A stretch of 64,000 bases of DNA from Bispira polyomma (taxonomy: Eukaryota), in assembly GCA_965649765.1 (NCBI GenBank), contig OZ287755.1:22692001-22756000 (forward strand), written 5' to 3'. The first letter of the stretch is position 1, and every line of letters starts with the position of its first letter. Position numbers and translations under genes: made by a program. Shown one piece after another: positions 19,131 to 63,922 of this stretch. The notes under the pieces are model-generated. The model had not been told where the DNA came from. It made no database searches and saw nothing but the letters and a program-made list of their open reading frames with translations.

Positions 19131-20715
19131 ATGACTACATTTGCATATGTACATATATATATATAGTGTTTACAAATATACAACAAAAAAAAAACATTAC
19201 AAAAAAACACAAAGGCTTCACAAAAAGGAAAAAGACAAACTCAGAAATAAAGATAAAACAGTACTACTAATAATACTATCATTTTTATATATACACGTAG
19301 GCCACCAAGTGTTACACCTCCACTGGAATAGGAAGTTTATTATGCCGAAACTACTGATCTGATGCCATTACCTGTATTTATATCTAGTTGTTTAAGACAG
19401 ACAATTCAGTCTTATTGAATATTTTACCAAACAATTCTTTGTAGAAAGACTTGGTTAAAGTGGTAATATTTTATCATACTTAGTTACTAGAGGTACCATG
19501 TCAATGTCTTATTTTAACATTATCAGTTAATTTGATTGTCACTATCTAGATTGGTTTAACTTAAATCAAGCAACCCATGTACACACAAGCGGTAGAATAA
19601 CTAAGACAATTTTATCAACAAAAATATTCATTTGATATTTGTTGTGTCATTAGGGAAAGAAATCCTCTTCAAAAAAAACTTCTGGCATTTCAATAATCTT
19701 CAATATCAAATTATGGTTCACACTTTTTATTATAAAATCAAATTCAAAGTTTTCTGGTAGTTTACATAGTTGTTTTATTTTAGTGGTTCAAATCTGTACA
19801 TTCTTTTATCTGTTGGTCTTTAATAAACATCAATCTGTCTATAAGTAAGAGTCAGAACAGAGACTCAGTGGCTGGCTGTTGTCTCCCATTTTATTTACCA
19901 ACACATGACATTTTTACTGTAAATGAAACATATACTGTAAGCCTGATTTAGCTTGAATAGAATGATTGTAAAATTAGATGTAGAAGAGGGATGTTATTAG
20001 GAATCAATAGGACAATCTCTATTTTGGAGTGTGGGAAGGACTTTGTCAAAGAGAATGTTAATAAAAATGGTAAAATAATGTCACAAATGTAGTTTTTCCT
20101 TTTTAGGTTTAAAGTGTGTAAAATATTGACAATGGACGCATTAACTGATACAGTTCCCAGGAACCAGACATAGGCTAATTAGCCATTTACTTATCAACAC
20201 AGAAAAAGATTGCGGTTCATAATTTTATTAGTAGACTACAGGGTTAAAACTACTATGTACATTTTTTTATTAAGAGGAGGGGCATAAGGTAACCTTAAGA
20301 AAGCAAAAATTTTAAGGTCACCATAACATAAAGAATTGTCAAGATGAGGTTACCCTAAGTGAGATTTCGAATTTAAGTTAGGGTGACCATAAGTTAGTAA
20401 CAGAATAAGGTGACCATAACTTGAATTTTAGTTTAAGTTTGAGAATACTATAAATTTAAGTTTAAGTGAATAAATTAAATTTTTAATGAAATTTAAATTT
20501 TAAAAATTTTGGCAATTATAAGTGAAATTTAAATTCAAAGATTTTGAAAGTTAGATGGAGGAGTACATTATGTGCTTCCCACAGGAGGGTGACCTTATGC
20601 CCCAATATGCTGTGATAATTTATTTTATTGACATTTATTTTGCATGTTTTTAAACATGTAAATTTATAAAGTTTTAGGTGAGAGGAAAAGTCCAAACCAC
20701 CAAGCCCAAAAGTTT

Positions 20716-23957: not shown

Positions 23958-25801
23958 GACTGTTTTTTGGTACAATTAACACTCCTGTGCGCCCCAGCAC
24001 ACGTTTCGCATATATGCTTAAAGAAGGTATTTCCACTTTTGTGGCTAGACTGAAATTTGCAAGAACCCTCTTGATAAAATTTTCAATTGGCCGAGCCCTG
24101 TTTCCCTATTCCTGTGCTTTTACTCCCACCCCTCGTGAAAGTACTACTGCTACCACTACTTGATACATGCTTCTGGGCATGGGCTCGACGCAACCTATCT
24201 AGTTTCTCGACCTCTGTCCATTTCAACTTATCCATTTCCATGGTGGTTAACACCACGGCATGGCAGGCTTTGGCGGCCTCCCAAGAAAAATTCTGGGAGT
24301 CCTCTATTAAGCCTGCCATGTAATCCAACATTAGTTCTTTTATTTTCGGATTTTTTTCATCTTGTATAATGCGGGTAAACCCACACACCCACTGACTAAG
24401 AGAAAGATCGTCATAGCTAGGTCGCGTTTTAAAGTTTCCGGACAGCATTTTCTGACGTGATTCTGGGGCCATTCGACCACTCTCTTCACTACAACGTCAA
24501 CGCCACCCCCTCTTTGTGATTTGATCTTAGCTTTTTTTTGATTCTCGTTTAGCTCCTTAAGTTCGCTAAGCCGTTGCTCGACCTGACTTTGGATGCAGGT
24601 ATTTGTTTTCAGAAATTCAATAGTCGGGACCACACTGTTCACGATAATAGCACTGATTTGATCCGTATTTGCACTGGCAACAGTTTCGTCAGTGTTTAAG
24701 CTTTTACCATTCTGATTTCTACCGGCAATTTCAAAAGAATTTTGACCTTTCTCACTACAATTTTTGGGTGAATCCTTGTTACATATAAGGACATTGTGAT
24801 ATGTTAAAGCACTCTGCTAGAGTGATCTATTTATAGATTTGGGGAAACCCCTAAGCTTCTAGAAGCTGTTTCTATTTTGTTTCTGTTATTAAAGTTGTGT
24901 TCATATGTATATCTCATCTCTGGAATGTTCTAGCGATTGCTTACATATTCTAGAGCCTTCTCTAGTAGTTGTATATATAAGGGTTGACAGCCTGGCCACA
25001 GACCAGAGTTAATTGAGTTGAGGTGCTATTTGAACTGCTATACTGTGAAACATTTTATTTCTTTTCCTGAGGATATAAACTGATTACTACATATGTTTTT
25101 GTGGTGAACTCATTGGAGTGAAGTAGATAAAAGTTGTGGATCTACCAGAGATTGGATTTACTGCATATTGGATATTGTTTGCATCCTGGACTGGATAGCT
25201 TAGTTGTGCAGACTCTCTGGATATATACATTTTGTGTTCGTGGACACTGAACGGATAACAGGATACAGGCATTGTGTGGACACAGAGCGGATCTCAAGAC
25301 AGATTGCTGGATACAGTGGACAAACTTGTTTAATTGTTATTTATGTGGACAGGACTGTGGTCAGGTCAGATAGGTTTCATTATTGTATTATTGTGTGAAC
25401 TATTAAGGGTATCACCGTTGACTGTAATTCCGTAATTGTTATTTTATTTGTTAAATAAATTTGTTAAGTGAAACTTTTTTTCTTTTCCTGTTACAACCTC
25501 AAAGCAACCGGTAATTGCTCCCGCGCTTGCTCCCGTGACCGTAACAATCCTTCACCAAAGCCGCCTCAGTGAGGAGGACACGTTTGTCCAGCCAATTCAT
25601 CATTTCACCCATGCTCTGCAATTGCAGTAGAATTTTATTAGAAACCTCAGCCAAACCGCTGGGAGCAACCGAATCCGCCCCTTCAACTAACTCGTCCTCG
25701 GAAATGGACTCCTTGTGTATTACACCATTACATTTGCTACCGACTGGTCTGGCATGCCTTTCAAGACATTTTGAACAACCATACACTTTTACCCGTGGCA
25801 T
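23948..25801 (-). pseudogene. Gag-like ORF1 of YR retrotransposon 1, interrupted by a solo LTR
   Basis: N-terminal CxxCxxxH...GxxC. Removing 24777-25546 plus one ATCCT rejoins ...ALVKD-SPKNC...VNSVVPT in frame. Core WPQNHV/RPSYDDLSLSQWVCGF. C-terminal *KFYQEGSC...SH...HICETCAGAHRSVNC zinc fingers (first Cys mutated to stop). Confidence 0.85.
24777..25546 (+). mobile_element. Solo LTR (copy 2, 770 bp) nested in gag
   Basis: TGTTAC...GTAACA termini, 5-bp TSD ATCCT (24772-24776, 25547-25551), TATA-like TATATATAAG at about 24972, AATAAA at about 25454. Confidence 0.92.
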
Positions 25802-26719
25802 TCTGAGAGACAGTTACTCTAACACACGAAAACGAATGTAAAATAAACATGTAAAACAAATAAGATAAACCAAGACTCTCTGCCAAAACCTCCAGTGTAT
25901 ATATTTAATTCGAAGTTGTTTCTCTGCTGACGGTTGGTGTAAAGAAAGAGATTTCAAATTTCCTTGGTTTATATAGCGAAACGCAATCAAGTGTGACCAA
26001 AAGACTAGTTCCCCGAACTGAAACCACCAACACTATGGCGTTGCCTTCTATAGTGGTGGCTTTTTTCAGATATTAGTTACACTAAAGAATAGACCTCCTC
26101 ATCCATCATTTAACACTGGAGGTGTATCAGTTGGTCTATATTTGTATGTAAAATATATCAATACCAATCAGGCAACCCATCAAACAGGTTTAAATAAGGT
26201 AACATACAATTCCATAGTTTATTCACCTTCAGTGCTATCAAGTTTAAATGCAATAAAGGTATATGTACAGACCATGCATTGTGATATTTGGTACTACTTT
26301 TGTAGACATTACATTTTTGTAGACAACATAATATCATAATAAAAAAATTAAAAACAAAAAGCTTTTGTCCTTACATTTCAATTTTTTTGCAATTTGTTCA
26401 TAATAATAAGTGTTTTTCACAATAGAGAAATCGGAAGGACATCTCTTAAACACAATCCATCAGTTTTTGTTCTTGTTGTCTAAACAATAAACAAATGATT
26501 TTATATAAAAAAATCGTTTTTGACATAGTTAATTACACTATAAATTAAACATAACATATTTAGTGTTTCCTTTTTAAGTGTTCATGTAGTTTCCTTTTTA
26601 AGTGTTCATGTAGTACTGAGGGAATATACACAATTTTGTGTCTATACACACAGATCAGATTTATACAAGGCTACATATGAAGACATATAATAGACTACAA
26701 CGTTTCCAGTACAAATTTA

Positions 26720-38227: not shown

Positions 38228-39101
38228 ACATTATATATGTGTAGAGGGTTTTACACAATATTACATTATAGATGTGTAGAGGGTTTTACACAGTGTTATA
38301 GATGTGCATGAGCTAACACGATGTTACATCATAGATGCACATGGGTAAGACGATGTTACATTACAGATGTACATAGGTAAGACGATGTTACATTATAGAT
38401 GTGCCTGGGCTAACACAATGGTACATTATAGATGTGCCTGGGCTAACACGATGTCACATTATAGATGTGCATGGGCTAACACAATGGTACATTATAGATG
38501 TGTACATGGGCTAACACAATGTTTTATTATAGATGTACATGGGTAACATGATGTTACATTGTAGATTTACATGGGTAACATGATGTTACATTGTAGATTT
38601 ACATGGGCTAACACAATGTTACATTATTGATGTGTACAGTGTTTTACACAATGTTACATTATAGATGTGTACAGGGCTTTACACAATGTTACATTATAGA
38701 TGTGTACAGTGTTTTACACAATGTTACATTATAGATGTGTAGAGGGCTTTACACAATGTTACATTAAAGACGTGTACAGTGTTTTACACAATGTTACATT
38801 ATAGATGTGTAGAGGTTTTTACATGATGTTACATTATAGATGTGTACAGTGTTTTACACAATGTTACATTATAGATGTGTAGATGGTTTTACATAATGTT
38901 ACATTATAGATGTGTACAGGGTTTTTTACACAATGTTACATTATAGATGTGTACAGGGTTTTACATGATGTTACATTATAGATGTGTAGAGGGTTTTACA
39001 TGATGTTACATTATAGATGTGTAGAGGGTTTTACATGATGTTACATTATATATGTACATGGGTTCAACATGATATTACATTATAGATGTACATGGGCTAA
39101 C
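38228..39101. repeat. 32-35-bp minisatellite, about 26 copies
   Basis: Unit ATGTTACATTATAGATGTGTACAGGGTTTTACACA with blocks of subtypes. Confidence 0.95.
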
Positions 39102-39189
39102 AAGTATTGTGTGCAAGCTTGACAAGTCAGCTATATGACACCATACCCCACTAGCTACCTACCAAACAACATATTCTTTTTATTTACAA

Positions 39190-49099: not shown

Positions 49100-49642
49100 T
49101 ACATATATAAATTGTAAAAATGAAAGGTTCACACAAAGTTTGTAAAAAAATTGACACAGACACTTTGAATCTTGCACTATGATTTTAAACTGTGGTAATG
49201 CAGCGATAAGAAGCTGCTACACAGTAATGTTCTTGAATCCCCAATATTTTATATATCATTAGAAATTAGCTGTATTTATATACATATCAGAAAGGAATGT
49301 AATGTTAGTATTATGGATATTCTATTTTCTGTGTTGATGTGACATCTGAAGAGCTATCACAATCTGAAGAGGATCAAATTGGTGTTAAGGATATCTAACT
49401 GGTAGATAATTGTATAAGTAGCCATCAAAAAGCTGTGGTTCCAGACAGCCTCCTTAGACATATGACCAATCAGTGTGAAGAGGGGGAGACTGTACAGGGG
49501 GGCAGACAGAGATCTCCTCAAACAAGTAATTCAATCACAGGCCTATTTAAGCTGATCCCCTCGCTGATGTGCTGGATCATACCCTTTAACTGGAGACCTG
49601 AGGTCAGCTAGGGAGCAAGTAAATCATATAACCGGCTCCATT

Positions 49643-51876
49643 ATGTCTAGGTATGACAACTATAGAAATAGTATATATGTTAGTACCTTATCCTAATAAC
49701 AGTTATGTCTTAATGTCAAGTTATGACAACTATAGAAATAGTATGTATTTTAGTACCTTTTCCTAAAAACTTTTATGTCTTACTGTCAAGTTGTGACAGC
49801 TATATAAATAGTACATATTTTAGTACCTTATTCTAATAACCTTTATGTCTTACTGTCAAGTTGTGACAACTATAGAAATAGTACATATTTTAGTACCTTT
49901 TCCTAAAAACCTTTATGTCTTACTGTCAAGTTGTGACAGCTATAGAAATAGTACATATGTTAGTACCTTATTCTAATAACCTTTATGTCTTACTGTCAAG
50001 TTGTGACCACTATAGAAATAGTACATATTTTAGTACCTTTTCCTAAAAACCTTTATGTCTTATTGTCAAGTTGTGACAGCTATAGAAATAGTACATATGT
50101 TAGTACCTTATTCTAATAACCTTTATGTCTTACTGTCAAGTTGTGACAACTATAGAAACAGTACATATTTTAGTACCTTTTCCTAAAAACCTTTATGTCT
50201 TACTGTCAAGTTGTGACAGCTATAGAAATAGTACATATGTTAGTACCTTATTCTAATAACCTTTATGTCTTACTGTCAAGTTATGACAACTATAGAAATA
50301 GTACATATTTTAGTACCTTTTCCTAAAAACCTTTATGTCTTACTGTCAAGTTGTGACAGCTATAGAAATAGTACATATGTTAGTACCTTATTCTAATAAC
50401 CTTTATGTCTTACTGTCAAGTTGTGACAACTATAGAAATAGTACATATTTTAGTACCTTTTCCTAAAAACCTTTATGTCTTACTGTCAAGTTGTGACAGC
50501 TATAGAAATAGTACATATGTTAGTACCTTATTCTAATAACCTTTATGTCTTACTGTCAAGTTGTGACAACTATAGAAATAGTACATATTTTAGTACCTTT
50601 TCCTAAAAACCTTTATGTCTTACTGTCAAGTTGTGACAGCTATAGAAATAGTACATATGTTAGTACCTTATTCTAATAACCTTTATGTCTTACTGTCAAG
50701 TTGTGACAACTATAGAAATAGTACATATTTTAGTACCTTTTCCTAAAAACCTTTATGTCTTACTGTCAAGTTGTGACAGCTATAGAAATAGTACATATGT
50801 TAGTACCTTATTCTAATAACCTTTATGTCTTACTGTCAAGTTGTGACCACTATAGAAATAGTACATATTTTAGTACCTTTTCCTAAAAACCTTTATGTCT
50901 TACTGTCAAGTTGTGACAGCTATAGAAATAGTACATATGTTAGTACCTTATTCTAATAACCTTTATGTCTTACTGTCAAGTTGTGACAACTATAGAAATA
51001 GTACATATTTTAGTACCTTTTCCTAAAAACCTTTATGTCTTACTGTCAAGTTGTGACAGCTATAGAAATAGTACATATGTTAGTACCTTATTCTAATAAC
51101 CTTTATGTCTTACTGTCAAGTTGTGACAACTATAGAAATAGTACATATTTTAGTACCTTTTCCTAAAAACCTTTATGTCTTACTGTCAAGTTGTGACAGC
51201 TATAGAAAAAGTACATATGTTAGTACCTTATTCTAATAACCTTTATGTCTTACTGTCAAGTTGTGACAACTATAGAAATAGTACATATTTTAGTACCTTT
51301 TCCTAAAAACCTTTATGTCTTACTGTCAAGTTGTGACAGCTATAGAAATAGTACATATGTTAGTACCTTATTCTAATAACCTTTATGTCTTACTGTCAAG
51401 TTGTGACAACTATAGAAACAGTACATATTTTAGTACCTTTTCCTAAAAACCTTTATGTCTTACTGTCAAGTTGTGACAGCTATAGAAAAAGTACATATGT
51501 TAGTACCTTATTCTAATAACCTTTATGTCTTACTGTCAAGTTGTGACAACTATAGAAATAGTACATATTTTAGTACCTTTTCCTAAAAACCTTTATGTCT
51601 TACTGTCAAGTTGTGACAGCTATAGAAATAGTACATATGTTAGTACCTTATTCTAATAACCTTTATGTCTTACTGTCAAGTTGTGACAACTATAGAAATA
51701 GTACATATGTTAGTACCTTATTCTAATAACCTTTATGTCTTACTGTCAAGTTGTGACAACTATAGAAATAGTATATATTTTAGTACCTTTTCCTAAAAAC
51801 CTTTATGTCTTAGTGTCAAGTTATGACAACTATAAAAATAGTATATATGTTGGTACCTTATCCTAATAACCTTATG
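49643..51876. repeat. 70-bp satellite (about 32 monomers) organised as a 140-bp A/B dimer
   Basis: A: ..GACAAC..CATATTT..CCTTTTCCTAAAAAC; B: ..GACAGC..CATATGT..CCTTATTCTAATAAC. Strict alternation over about 49861-51680, degenerate edges. Confidence 0.97.
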
Positions 51877-52954
51877 CCTTGACGGATGGGATTTACACTT
51901 CTGCACAAATCATAGCTATGTACTTGGCATATAATTTAGCATGTAAATCAATTGGTATGATAGGTATGGGCTACATGTGTTGTGGACCATGCTGATTCTA
52001 ATGCTCAGCATAATGCGTCATGAAGCTGGTGCTTGTACTCTACCTAGCAAGCTTTTCATATCTGCTAACATATACTGCTACATGCAATCTACACAACACA
52101 GAAATGGTACACATATGACACAAGTCAAAATCAAATTTTGTGGATAGTTTCAGAACAGAGTCATTGATGTACCCTATTCATTAAGCCATGTATATACTAT
52201 ACTAACAGTAGATTAGGTTGCTCTATACCTTATCCTACAAGTCATCACTATGTCTTGCTAGATGTGATTTGCAGTTATGCACACATCACCGCCATCACTA
52301 AAAATATTGATGAAACTTTTTTGGAAAGAAACATATTCTGAATAAAATGTCCGTAATTGGAACCTGTTGATTGAGATTTGATTTGTATTTGATTTGCAGA
52401 GACATTTTGCATGAGAATATAATATCATAGCAGGGATTGTGTCACAGTTCAAATGGACGCTTTGTAATACATTAAATTGGTCTATTATGTACCCATAGTT
52501 ACCGGAGATTGGAGAATGGATAATGGAAAGAAAATTGAATTTGCTATACACAGGAACAACTAGGAGCTAAACTAGTTTCAGTTAAAGTATTACAAAAAGA
52601 AAAGAACTAATACCGGCATTTGGAAGGGCATGGGTGTGTAACACCTTTAATAGTTTCTGGCTATACCATTTTAATATGGTACAATCTAGAAGTGCAGCAA
52701 TGTAGACTTCCCAGTCAATCAGATTGAGTTAAAACTACAGGGATTCAATCAGTTGGCTCATCACAACTCTTCATATAATCAAACGTCACACTATTAAATT
52801 TCCTCATTGTGCATCAGTCAGAACTTACATTTACTCTCAGCTGAATCAAATGGTAGTGACTTTTGAGGTTAATGTCATAAGATAGAGGCTGACCTTGTAC
52901 TGGTGTGAAGGTGGATATGAAATTGAGAAGTAATAAATCAGATGCAGTTTGAGA

Positions 52955-55112: not shown

Positions 55113-55404
55113 CACATCTGTAACTCCAGCCCAGTGTCCTATTTGCTGGTCCCACAGAGTGTCTGACTACAGACAGACTAAATAGGTCAAACATCAGTCT
55201 CACAAAAATCAAAGGTTTTTCCCAGGTTTATTTCCATTTGCTAGACTTTTCTGTCACGAAAGTTCATTAAAAATCCGCATAGCATCAAACCTTCAGTTTA
55301 ACAAACAGGAAGCTCAGTAATACAAAAATAAATCTGTGATTTCCTTTAAATCTCACATATATTGTTGCATGTATCTAATGTCAGTAATATAGGTGATCTA
55401 TTCA

Positions 55405-56090
55405 TGTGATCAATCATTCCTGTGATCAGCCTTTGTGTCATCGGTCATTTGTGTCATCAGTCATTTGTATCATCAACCATTTGTATCATCCGTCATTTGT
55501 ACCATCAACCTTTTTGCCAACAGTCATTTGTATCATTAGCCATTTTTGTCATGTCATTTGTATCATCAGTCATTCGTTTCATCAGCCATTTGTGTCATCA
55601 GTTATTTGTATCATCAGCCATTTGTATGATCACTTTTTTTGTATCATCAGTCATTCATATGATCAGTTTTTGTATCGTCAGCCATTTGTATTATCAACCA
55701 TTTGTGTCAACAGTAATTTGTATCATCAGCCATTTTTGTTATCAGTCATTTGTATCATCAGTCATTCGTTTTATCAGCCATTTGTGTCATCAGTTATTTG
55801 TATCATCAGCCATTTGTATGATCAGTTATTTGTATCATTAGTCATTTGTATGATCAAGTGTTTGTAACAACAGCCATTTGTATCTTCAACCATTTGTATT
55901 ATCAGTCCTTTGTATCATCAGCCATTTGTATTATCAGCCATTTGTGTCATCAGTAATTTGTGTCATCAGTAATCTGTGTCATTAGTCATTTGTATCATAA
56001 ATCATTTGCATCATCAGTCATTTATATATCATCAGCTATTTGTGCCATCCATTATTTGTATCATCAGCCATTTGTATCATCAACCATTCA
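55405..56090. repeat. Degenerate about 16-bp minisatellite
   Basis: Unit CATCAGYCATTTGTAT, about 40 copies. Confidence 0.92.
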
Positions 56091-59900: not shown

Positions 59901-60797
59901 GTGAACACCACATTAGTTTGCAACAACTATGTCAGGTACCAAGTAACACCTTAATAGTGTACCCCCCTCCGTCCATGCCACCCCTCCCCTTCTAAACCTA
60001 GACATATTGCTGGCTAAGCTTGTCTGTAATGAGTTCGACTTACAACATGTGTTGACATAACCTGTCAAACAGATAACCAGGGCCTGCTCTTTCTACCACT
60101 CATTTCCCCGGTAGCAGGCTAAAGGATCCGAGGTCATGAAGACGAGGTAAGTAAACACAGAATGCGGTAATTTATTTATTAGACTAAATGTTAGAACCTA
60201 CTATGTACATGGTGACTTAAGGTCACCTCAAATAAAGTTAAAACAAGATACTTAGGATGACTTAAGGTCACCTAAAGTAAAAAAATTTAATTTAGGAATA
60301 ATAAATAAATTTAGCTAAAGGTCACCTTTAATTAATTTAAGTTCGTAATTCCCGAACCAGAAAGATTTCGAAGATAAGGTGACCTTAAATCCAATGGAAA
60401 AAATTTTGAGTAGAAATTAATTTTTAATGTAGCTACTGTACTGTAGCAATACTTGGCGTACCCAAGTGTTTAAGTTGAAACTACAAAAGTATTTAAAGTT
60501 ACCTTAAGTATGTAGCTACTGTACTGTAGCTAAATAATGGGATCATAGCCATTTACAGTATAATAATTTAGACTTCACATAGGCATACTTAATAGAAGAG
60601 CAGACCGAAGTCAGTTTAACAAGGTATAATTACACAATACTGTTAAGCTTAAGCAATAACTTCAGTTTTTATGACAAAGGTAATATGTGAAATGAATGAT
60701 GACTAAAATTACGTAATTGTTTTACATAACCATTAATTATTACAAAAGAGAGGAGTAGATTTAAAGTACAACCAGCCAAACCCCAATGAAGTAGGAG

Positions 60798-61832
60798 CTA
60801 GGAGGTGGAAGGCAATAAGTGATGTCTAAAGGAATCAGCTACCTGATTACCAGCGTCCACAGTATCAGTAACATATCTCCAAACGCAGTCCTACGTCCAG
60901 GTGCCATGTTTTTGAATGTTTTGAATGCTTACATTATGGTTGAAAGCAAAGGTGGCACCTGAACAAAGGAACGCGTGGAAGGTGAGGCCAGAATCTTGCA
61001 GTTTGAGTTTGAGCAATATGTCTTTAAAATGGCGACGCACTCTGGTGTCTGTGAGCGGAATCCAAACATTGTTAACCTTAATTTGGAACAATGGAGAGTT
61101 AGGTCCCGAAGGGGTGAGCCTCATTAAAGCCTTCAGTGAATCCACAGGGCACAACAGTGAGCCAGGTAACCGGGGAACAGTGAGTAATTTAATTTGGTTA
61201 TTACTTTGCATGGTTTTGGACCACTTGATAAGGATAACGGCCTTATCAGGGTGAAAAAGGACATCAGCTCTGGCTAGATGCCTAAGAGGAGAAAATTGTG
61301 AGACAGAGTGAGGAACCAGGTTTGAGAGTCTAAGAAAAGAGAAAAAGCTAAGCAAGTATAATGCTTTAAATACTAAACCCATGTAGGTTGAGTGTGACAA
61401 AGACACAATATTTTGCAAAGTTGCAACATCTATAATTCTCTTGAGTTTGACTTGAAGGGGGGTGGAAAGTGGTACAGCCTTCTGGTAATAGGCTATGCGC
61501 GGGTCACTGAAGGCCTGAATGGGAACATTATGTACTATTAATTCAGCCTTGATGGCAGACAGATAATTTGCCATATGAGCAGATTTGACTACATTAAAGT
61601 GTAAAACTTCTAAAAAACATAATATATGAAACGCAGTCACCTGATGTATAGGCCAATCCATGAAGACCATAAAGGCCAAGTACACCCGAAATATGGCTCT
61701 GTAAGACCTGGCAGTGGACCTGCAGAAGGCCAGGTGGAGCTTTTTAGTAGCATTGTGATACAGTTGTTTTTGCAAAGGAGTCTTATCTGAAATACAGGTT
61801 GGTATAAGGAAGACGAACTTACAATTTGACAT
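60798..61832 (-). pseudogene. Tyrosine recombinase of element 2 (catalytic HxxR lost, premature stop)
   Basis: ORF 60891-61832: FLRLSNL, KWSKT, LCPV, HAFLCSGAT (versus HSFRRSGAT), HGTWT then a stop. The frame continues DCVWRY... to a stop at 60798. Confidence 0.92.
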
Positions 61833-63922
61833 TATATTGTGTTATCTAGTAGTAAATGTTGGTCAGTCACAGGGCACCACTGCACCGCACCTACAAGTGT
61901 ATGTAATTTAGCATGGTTCTGTGTAGAATTTTCCCATCTGGACAGCAAATCTGCAGTCGTGTTGTGGTCACCTAATATATGTATAACTTGTAAGTCAATG
62001 TCATGATGGCTAACCAGCATAAAGATGTTACGTGAGTACAAAGCCAGGATACTATCTTTGGTACGACCATTGGTAAGTACACTAACCACAGCCTGGTTAT
62101 CACATTTTATGAGCACTTTCTGGCCTTGCCAAAGGGGCCCCCACAGTTTTAAGGTGACAAATATGTTCAGCATCTCCAGGGAGGCAATATTAAGGTTCTG
62201 CAATTCATGGCGTAGACTTTATTACCAAAAACCCCCCCATGCCTGTAAGACAGGCATCCAATTCTACAGTGGCTGTAATGGGGTTATGGTGGAAAAAAGA
62301 AACACCATTGAATTTTTTCAGAAAGGTATGAAACCAATTTAAATCTTTCATGAATTCAGTAGAGACTTTGAAAGTTTTTGCCTTATAGTTACTCCTAAGG
62401 AGATGCAACATACGGTTCAAGAAAAATCTTGAAGATTTAACACATTTTAACACGTAGAGAAGGGAACCCAATAAACATTGGAGTTCTCTTTTCGTACAAT
62501 GTTTCTTTCCAGCCCACTTGTCACACAAGGCTTGAATAGTAGTTAATTTTTCCTCAGGAATAGAAGTAGTGAACTTGACCGTATCTATGACTATACCAAG
62601 ACAAGTGACACGCGTGGCAGGAGGGACTAACTTTTTGTCACTCAAGGTGAGACCCAATTCTGCCAGAAGGCTTTGCAATCGCTGGTATGTGGTATATATC
62701 TTAGACGGAACCGAGCAACAAAGGAGATCGTCGATATAGTTGAGGATATGATGACCTTCACCCTTCATGATATATCTGACCCCATCTGAAATTCTCTGGA
62801 ATATGGCCGAGCCGTGCTTGTAGCCAAAAGGGAGGGACCCGCCTACGTAGTACCCATCCCAATATAGCCCCAGTAAATTTAGCTCCTTTGGGTCCATAGG
62901 CACGTGTCTGAATGCACGACTAATGTCTGCTTTAAATATGAGAGAACTTCTACCCATAGCAAATACCTGAGCTGTTATAGTGTCTATAGACGGGTAGGTC
63001 AATAAGAATTGTCTATCCAGGTAGGAATTTGGACACACGGCAGAATTCACGGAGTGGCCTTCAGGCCAGCTTAAGTCAATTATGACACGACGGTTGGAAG
63101 AGCTAGACTTGTCGCGAGTCATAAAAGGGGAAGTATGTAAATTTAAAATTGGTGGCACATCAAAGGGACCAAACATGGCCCCTAATTTACACTCTTCATT
63201 CAGGTAATGCGTGACATGGTCGGGGTACTGGTTAGCAGAGGAATGATTTTTAAGATCAGACTCAAAGTCGCCCCTGGCACTACAATCGAGAGGAAAACCG
63301 AATTTAATAAGCAAGGGGAGCTCCCAATCCCAGTAGTCCCTCAAATAAGCAGCCCACACTGGAGCATTTAGTTGAGAAGCGACAGGGATCTGCAGCCCCC
63401 GGTAGTTAGGGCGGCCGTCCTCCTGCAAACACTTGTGAAGTGCAAAAACATTAGTAAAACTTCGTTTCTGAGCATTATCTGAAAGTTTTTCACCCCAGGA
63501 TGACAGGGGAATAAAACCAAATTTTCCACTGTTTTGCACGTCCCATATTTTAAAAGTATCACACTCTTTAGCATCATTAAGTCTTTTGCGCTTATCAAGT
63601 GAGCGACACATGTCCAGAACATACTGATCGTCAGTTAAATTATTGTTTGTTTTCGTTGGGTTTTTCTTGGGGGCTGACACCTTTGTATTTCTATTAATTG
63701 TTTTCTTTGTTGGCACCCCAGTTCAGAAAAGGGGGCCTCTAGACAATCACCCAAATTAGTGTCACTTCCCCCCTCCCCACAAGGGGTGTCTAGCATTTCA
63801 TACTGATTGGAAAGTGGTAATTGAAAACCTGTGTCAGCACTCGCAGGTTTATTCCCTCCCTTTCTCAACAAAAGCCTGTTGGCATGTTTACACTTAGTCA
63901 TTGGATTAAGAGGGCTGGACAC
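61832..63922 (-). pseudogene. Pol (RT-RNase H) of element 2, frameshifted
   Basis: ORF 62205-63716: YWDWELPLLIKFGFPL, RRVIIDLSWP, KADISRAFRHVP, LPFG, YIDD, ELDAC. RNase H continues in 61832-62203 (IASLEM, KCDNQAVV, NTTADLLSR). Confidence 0.93.

Follow-up and report, generated by a model that had tools for sequence, protein, structure and literature searches.

A family-wide array of 13-bp dyads in a terminal repeat of Ngaro-like retrotransposons, and its possible role as docking sites for a host factor

We have analysed a 64-kb window (C8:22692001-22756000) of the 1.04-Gb genome of Bispira polyomma that carries two related retrotransposons, elements 1 and 2, and a striking array of short palindromes in the non-coding end of element 2. 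The frames and repeat B of element 2 lie on the minus strand, with the array positioned 3' of those for reverse transcriptase, RNase H and a tyrosine recombinase. Reverse transcriptase and RNase H (61832..63722) are split over two frames by a frame break in pol, and the recombinase frame (60891..61841), which adjoins or partly shares sequence with the RNase H frame, has an early stop, leaving 316 amino acids compared with 339 in a relative, L209. The frames of element 2 gave an RVT_1 match (E=3.5e-10) plus RNase H-like matches; its recombinase has no match in Pfam, that of L209 matches PF00589 weakly (E=0.013), and PF00589 is present on several among the 120 homologues listed. The gag gene (L031:370-1371) and the 5' end (near L031:1588) lie outside the window. 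The 3' non-coding end is terminal repeat B (60101..60779), whose end at 60101 is set by junctions at 28 other loci and whose extent is the counterpart of B1 and B2 in the full-length relative L210. Directly after the array, with some 60 nt of B still to follow, is a predicted poly(A) region (60150..60209) consisting of TGTACATA (TGTAYATA), AATAAA, CCGCA and a GU-rich tract; a role in polyadenylation is suggested by these motifs, and the order of such parts recurs in many of 42 families. We note that a full-length RNA would need to read through the poly(A)-like region in B1. Elsewhere in the window, element 1 is interrupted by a different repeat (24813-25546; second window copy at 12804-13268), and there are tandem arrays at 49504-51900, 6064-7091, 7843-8680, 38530-39107 and 55393-56075 with units of 70, 56, 42, 35 and 16 bp, respectively. 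Outside it, at L380:5312-6055, an open frame with a NADAR domain adjoins remnants of a tyrosine-recombinase (YR) element.

Full-length relatives of element 2 have the order A1-ORFs-B1-A2-linker-B2, with A repeats of 134-163 bp and B repeats of 545-746 bp that are 95-100% identical. Both repeat pairs were present in 7 of 11 fetched stretches, all picked for showing a second B, and the B pair alone in 2. The window copy of element 2 consists of A1-ORFs-B only; it lacks the split direct repeats, and there is no long repeat within or beside it. A B/A junction is present at 2 of 29 family-2 loci and 9 of 29 family-1 loci. Ngaro-like YR retrotransposons (order DIRS) have the arrangement A1-ORFs-B1-A2-B2 in the accessible portions of published descriptions (PMC4157794, PMC9210276, PMC8547959, PMC3783388). 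Because the relatives have split repeats in the order A1-B1-A2-B2 and no methyltransferase domain was matched in the scanned element frames, the Ngaro definition fits, and element 2 is best described as a Ngaro-like retrotransposon, an assignment made from published descriptions; the tree that was built contained only unnamed YR pieces (L222 and L207 were left out). A DIRS1-like or PAT-like identity was rejected for want of a methyltransferase, the long inverted repeats and internal complementary region of DIRS1 also being missing, and the split repeats of the full-length copies rule out a repeat-less class of element. We also note that the unique linker that follows A2 (0.4-0.7 kb, between A2 and B2 in L209, L210 and L212) has a splice-acceptor-like start, and that a promoter at B1/A2 would yield a short, probably non-coding RNA. 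The B/A junction itself is foldable: the terminal bases of B are complementary to a stretch some 35 nt inside A, and a hairpin lies between the two (60101-60120 with L031:1530-1590 for element 2, 20151-20170 with 26000-26054 for element 1, and the L208-L216 junctions), and the pair co-changes in some families (GAACTG/CAGTTC, GCACTG/CAGTGC). This fold may represent a folded recombination site.

The array (60211-60530) was originally predicted to contain GGTCACC at 60221, 60266 and 60320, GGTGACC at 60378, and a one-mismatch copy at 60497, which reads AGTTACC; all of these coordinates are exact, and the 17-mer hairpin at 60211 (60211-60227) and the 21-mer duplicated hairpin at 60427 and 60510 are likewise as predicted. 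Four sites in this space is beyond chance: when the 320 nt were shuffled 5000 times with dinucleotides preserved, no shuffle contained as many (mean 0.06), and across 200 shuffles of the whole window no 320-nt cluster held more than 3 sites. The whole-window count of GGTNACC alone is not significant (15 versus 9.7 expected; reached in 9 of 100 shuffles). Public contigs from 3 runs, which belong to one study that is possibly the assembly's own source, span the array as well as the insertion junction and differ from the assembly at 0-2 positions, and the array is thus not an assembly artefact.

Comparison across families indicates that the true unit of the array is a 13-bp dyad, TAAGGTNACCTTA. 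Read in the sense of the element, site 1 (60375..60387) is a perfect dyad that can pair with site 2 (60317..60329) in one strand, site 3 (60263..60275) is part of a paired module (60256-60272) like that of site 4, and site 4 (60218..60230), the last, shares bases with a second, degenerate dyad offset by 10 bp, with which it forms the 17-mer hairpin. A further degenerate dyad, with two changes, lies at 60494..60506. The sites had been thought to share mostly the same context, which proves not to be the case: the full TAAGGTNACCTTA is present at only one of the four exact sites (60375), and the others have 2-3 changes in their flanks. The duplicated hairpin is a second palindromic motif with a TACAGTACAGTA core (copy 1, 60510..60530; copy 2, 60427..60447) that is found in 8 families, most family-2 elements having 1-3 copies of it. 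As for AGATTTCGAA, it is positioned as predicted at 60363 and 20362, but is not conserved among family copies (2 of 46 in family 2, 5 of 27 in family 1), and we have rejected it as a shared signal.

In element 1, repeat B (20151..20699, minus strand) contains a homologous array, with GGTNACC present six times (20288-20588). The suggestion that the repeated sites are under selection is upheld in both families represented in the window, with site columns varying less than spacer columns (5 of 44 versus 53 of 169 variable in family 2, p=0.0075; 0 of 66 versus 31 of 253 in family 1, p=0.0008). What does not survive is the idea that the two arrays are independent. Both lie in repeat B of related elements, and the families of this genome make up almost a single clade. 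Sites keep the same order along 12 sequences, and the spacers of element 2 align with those of sister families (z 3.4-13.9 in 7 of 8, with L129 at z 1.2; L152, L223 and L237 were left out) and weakly with those of element 1 (z 3.3). Collinear sites together with alignable spacers in the element-2 clade argue that the two arrays are homologous. The motif is conserved as proposed, whereas the spacers, taken to be unconserved, are drifting homologous DNA that can still be aligned; nor do they derive from other sequence in the window, as the 64 kb contain no meaningful match to them elsewhere.

The motif extends well beyond these two families. GGTNACC is present in 181 of 189 loci found by homology rather than by motif, a figure that may include a few same-place duplicates and that excludes 70 loci obtained by a motif pattern search; at least one site lies in the 1400 nt that follow the recombinase at 59 of 60 loci of this homology-derived kind, and 25 of 32 families have at least two in some copy. 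The density of the motif is above background, as had been anticipated: 16 family representatives contain 56 sites versus 2.2 expected, a 25-fold enrichment calculated without the 6 clusters, out of 22, for which no end point could be defined. Motif-led searches indicate that the motif has been kept behind recombinases only 33-41% identical. Relaxed dyad sites number 235 in 42 families, 3 of 45 clusters having been left out of these statistics for having fewer than 3 sites, and the exact TAAGGTNACCTTA occurs 7,312 times genome-wide compared with 90 times for a reversed control. The two halves of the dyad are not equally constrained. Fewer mismatches have accumulated in the TAAGGTCA half than in the other (86 versus 129; p=0.004, with this and the other p-values across families being optimistic because the single-linkage clusters are related), yet immediately after an exact TAAGGTCA (n=93) the bases C, C, T, T and A are each found, in this order, at 77-94%, and 32% of dyad centres are A or T. 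Elements have from 1 to 8 exact sites with free spacing (10-289 bp) and no significant helical phasing at periods of 9.5-13 (p at least 0.059). Modules expand and contract between copies, and arrays are polar, with C or A centres first and G centres last. Metagenome relatives have no relaxed site in 30 loci, 15 of which have a tail of at least 400 nt, and in the tree the YR families of the genome form nearly one clade, with one short metagenome row nested inside. The literature searched, leaving aside subscription-journal reviews, Repbase and supplements, yielded no description of the motif. We consider the array to be a genuine cis-element that is under selection and present family-wide in repeat B of these Ngaro-like retrotransposons.

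The position of the array relative to putative promoters offers a clue to its function. In full-length copies 124-141 bp separate the end of the array from the B/A junction, the sites lying 124-442 bp before it, and a sequence matching a TATA box lies 66-89 bp after the junction, in repeat A (6 of 6 full-length copies), placing the array approximately 200-520 bp upstream of that TATA. A similar arrangement is seen in a 3.6-kb Gypsy LTR family (TG..CA ends, a tRNA primer site and an integrase C-terminus; 257 candidates; most of the 5 copies inspected flanked by 4-bp target duplications), which in 11 of 11 copies checked has 1-3 dyads, in the same orientation, about 30 bp before TATATAA. The dyad stretch of this family (64 nt) resembles a piece of YR tail (E=7e-5), and as this is one lineage, the occurrence may reflect a captured piece or chance. 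We note that the LTRs are unusually long and mostly solo in the 5 copies examined (L365:3292-6860; L385-L395), and that in L365 a piece of the repeat inserted in element 1 also abuts the LTR. In a single-copy stretch (L364:4937-5800; C1:2522700-2523600), 9 dyads in units of about 90 bp precede TATATAA; this could be either a host promoter or an old element. Exact sites sampled on contig C1 are mostly in YR tails; judged by eye, however, some 9 of the 27 places lack any sign of a YR element, compared with the roughly 1% that the reversed-control count predicts. The dyad has also been amplified into short satellites with 96-bp and 28-bp units (L363:3823-4591, L370:3363-3587) and occurs in further unclassified repeats (L373, L376, L379, L370:5052), one of them with a GGAC/CGGA microsatellite.

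The explanation that we favour, with a probability of a little over one half, is that the dyads are U3-like enhancer docking sites for a dimeric host factor. Such a factor would bind the TAAGGTNACCTTA dyads in repeat B as double-stranded DNA, and the bound array would activate the predicted TATA promoter in repeat A, at B1/A2 in full-length copies and at B/A on a circular intermediate. In the window copy, which has no A behind B, the array would either have no function or exert its effect from afar. That an unrelated Gypsy LTR carries the dyad before a predicted promoter makes a host DNA-binding protein the likely reader, and the finding that metagenome relatives without the dyad have an unchanged N-terminal zinc finger in Gag also counts in favour of a host factor. 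We note that, because the YR families of the genome form nearly one clade, the contributions of host and of element ancestry are inseparable. A monomer site for a nuclear receptor was considered and rejected, given that the five bases after TAAGGTCA are also conserved.

We read the sites as recognised in double-stranded form, perhaps with some pairing of outer sites on top. Changes in the 235 sites are strand-symmetric (80 of G.U type and 70 of A.C type, p=0.46) and include 214 transversions, which favours recognition of double-stranded DNA; moreover, degenerate sites match potential partners within their own tail not clearly better than those of other families (10.38 versus 10.30, p=0.06). 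It is possible, though we think it unlikely, that the sites instead form the arms of a folded single strand, either RNA or minus-strand cDNA, in which outer sites would clamp a domain of 200-400 nt and inner sites would form hairpins, the fold marking the genome for packaging or priming or controlling read-through of the poly(A) region in B1. The cDNA of DIRS-1 is single-stranded and its primer is unknown according to the accessible part of one study (PMC7192593). The array does fold well (z of -4.85 as sense RNA and -6.81 as antisense DNA), but the palindromes alone inflate these values; compared with shuffles that leave the motif in place, folding of the tails is stronger in 41 and 40 of 42 families, and the consensus fold is stronger in the sense strand (-21.1 versus -15.2), yet overall there is no strand preference (23 of 42, p=0.61). 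Outer sites covary as pairing predicts in 10 related element-1-like families (34 of 40 versus 28.3 expected, p=0.001), but not beyond shuffles in the element-2 clade (117 of 500). Likewise, deviations in the clamp of 6 other families are 7 G.U and 0 A.C, whereas the element-1-like clamp has 1 G.U and 6 A.C and a centre that is unpaired in 4 of 10 families, so that the two clamps show opposite wobble bias; the extension of the second clamp is not significant (p=0.05-0.10). Hairpin modules lean towards G.U (42 versus 13, p=1e-4, a count biased by the loci from the motif pattern search; 9 versus 3, p=0.15, for variants seen twice), which favours folding, and the polarity of the array counts against double-stranded recognition. 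Against a folded strand are the preponderance of transversions among site changes, the uniform orientation of the sites in the Gypsy LTR, and the return of 0 matches from Rfam at E<=1.

An improbable alternative to a host factor is that the element reads its own sites. Gag starts with a conserved C-x2-C-x3-H-x7-C followed, by eye, by a coiled-coil-like stretch, and this zinc finger and coiled coil, possibly spliced to the recombinase, could recognise the dyads, which would then be arm-type sites with an organising role in recombination at the B/A crossover. The sites do lie within a few hundred base pairs of the B/A junction (124-442 bp), and the motif has survived deep divergence of the recombinase within one clade. 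Nevertheless, the 30 metagenome loci with the same finger have no array, including the 15 with at least 400 nt of tail, the Gypsy LTR also carries sites, and the spacing from site to crossover is neither fixed nor phased. A search of the ESM Atlas with Gag found no named family. A more elaborate form, which we hold to be more doubtful still, would have a spliced Gag-recombinase build a λ-like complex at the folded B/A junction, with the outer sites clamping a single-stranded genome. In a core site of a tyrosine recombinase the crossover takes place inside a spacer of 6-8 bp. We have rejected the dyads as core sites, since the element ends at the termini of B and A, at least 124 bp from the nearest site.

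A neutral residue of shared ancestry or local duplication would fit spacers that still align within the clade and modules that expand and contract, but it is largely refuted, and has very little to recommend it, when the sites are conserved over the spacers, enriched 25-fold and kept behind such diverged recombinases, and the same holds for a CRISPR-like array, which has near-identical repeats, regular spacing and unrelated acquired spacers, whereas here the spacing is irregular (10-289 bp) and the spacers are inherited homologues shared between families.

A 13-bp site kept in dozens of diverged families and in a Gypsy LTR provides a handle on the factor that reads it, and opens the question of whether unrelated transposons in this animal converge on one host regulator. 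If a protein of the element reads the site instead, the array would constitute an accessory-site system of a eukaryotic tyrosine recombinase, and if neither a host factor nor an element protein does so, the dyad would be a marker of one transposon clade.

The array can be compared with several known systems. TAAGGTCA is a nuclear-receptor half-site that is used as a TR element, and the dyad resembles such an element in that it contains TAAGGTCA as its better conserved half; it differs from the layouts given in the accessible portions of that work in having a second half that is likewise conserved and shares three bases with the first, and fits neither DR0-5 nor Pal0 (PMC2045677, PMC11601197). 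For Ngaro-like elements, the searchable literature (subscription reviews, Repbase and supplements aside) yielded no description of the cis-signals that drive them, and the portions of the structural descriptions that were accessible mention no motif array in B (PMC4157794, PMC9210276, PMC8547959, PMC3783388). The elements described here also depart from the Ngaro-like plan in that unique sequence separates A2 from B2 and most sampled copies are without A2-B2. The U3 region of LTR retrotransposons and retroviruses contains enhancer repeats, with several copies of one short site in variable number. Like U3, repeat B combines a variable number of short sites, in a terminal repeat, with a position upstream of a TATA box and a poly(A) signal; unlike U3, it is part of a split repeat and meets the promoter only at the B/A junction.
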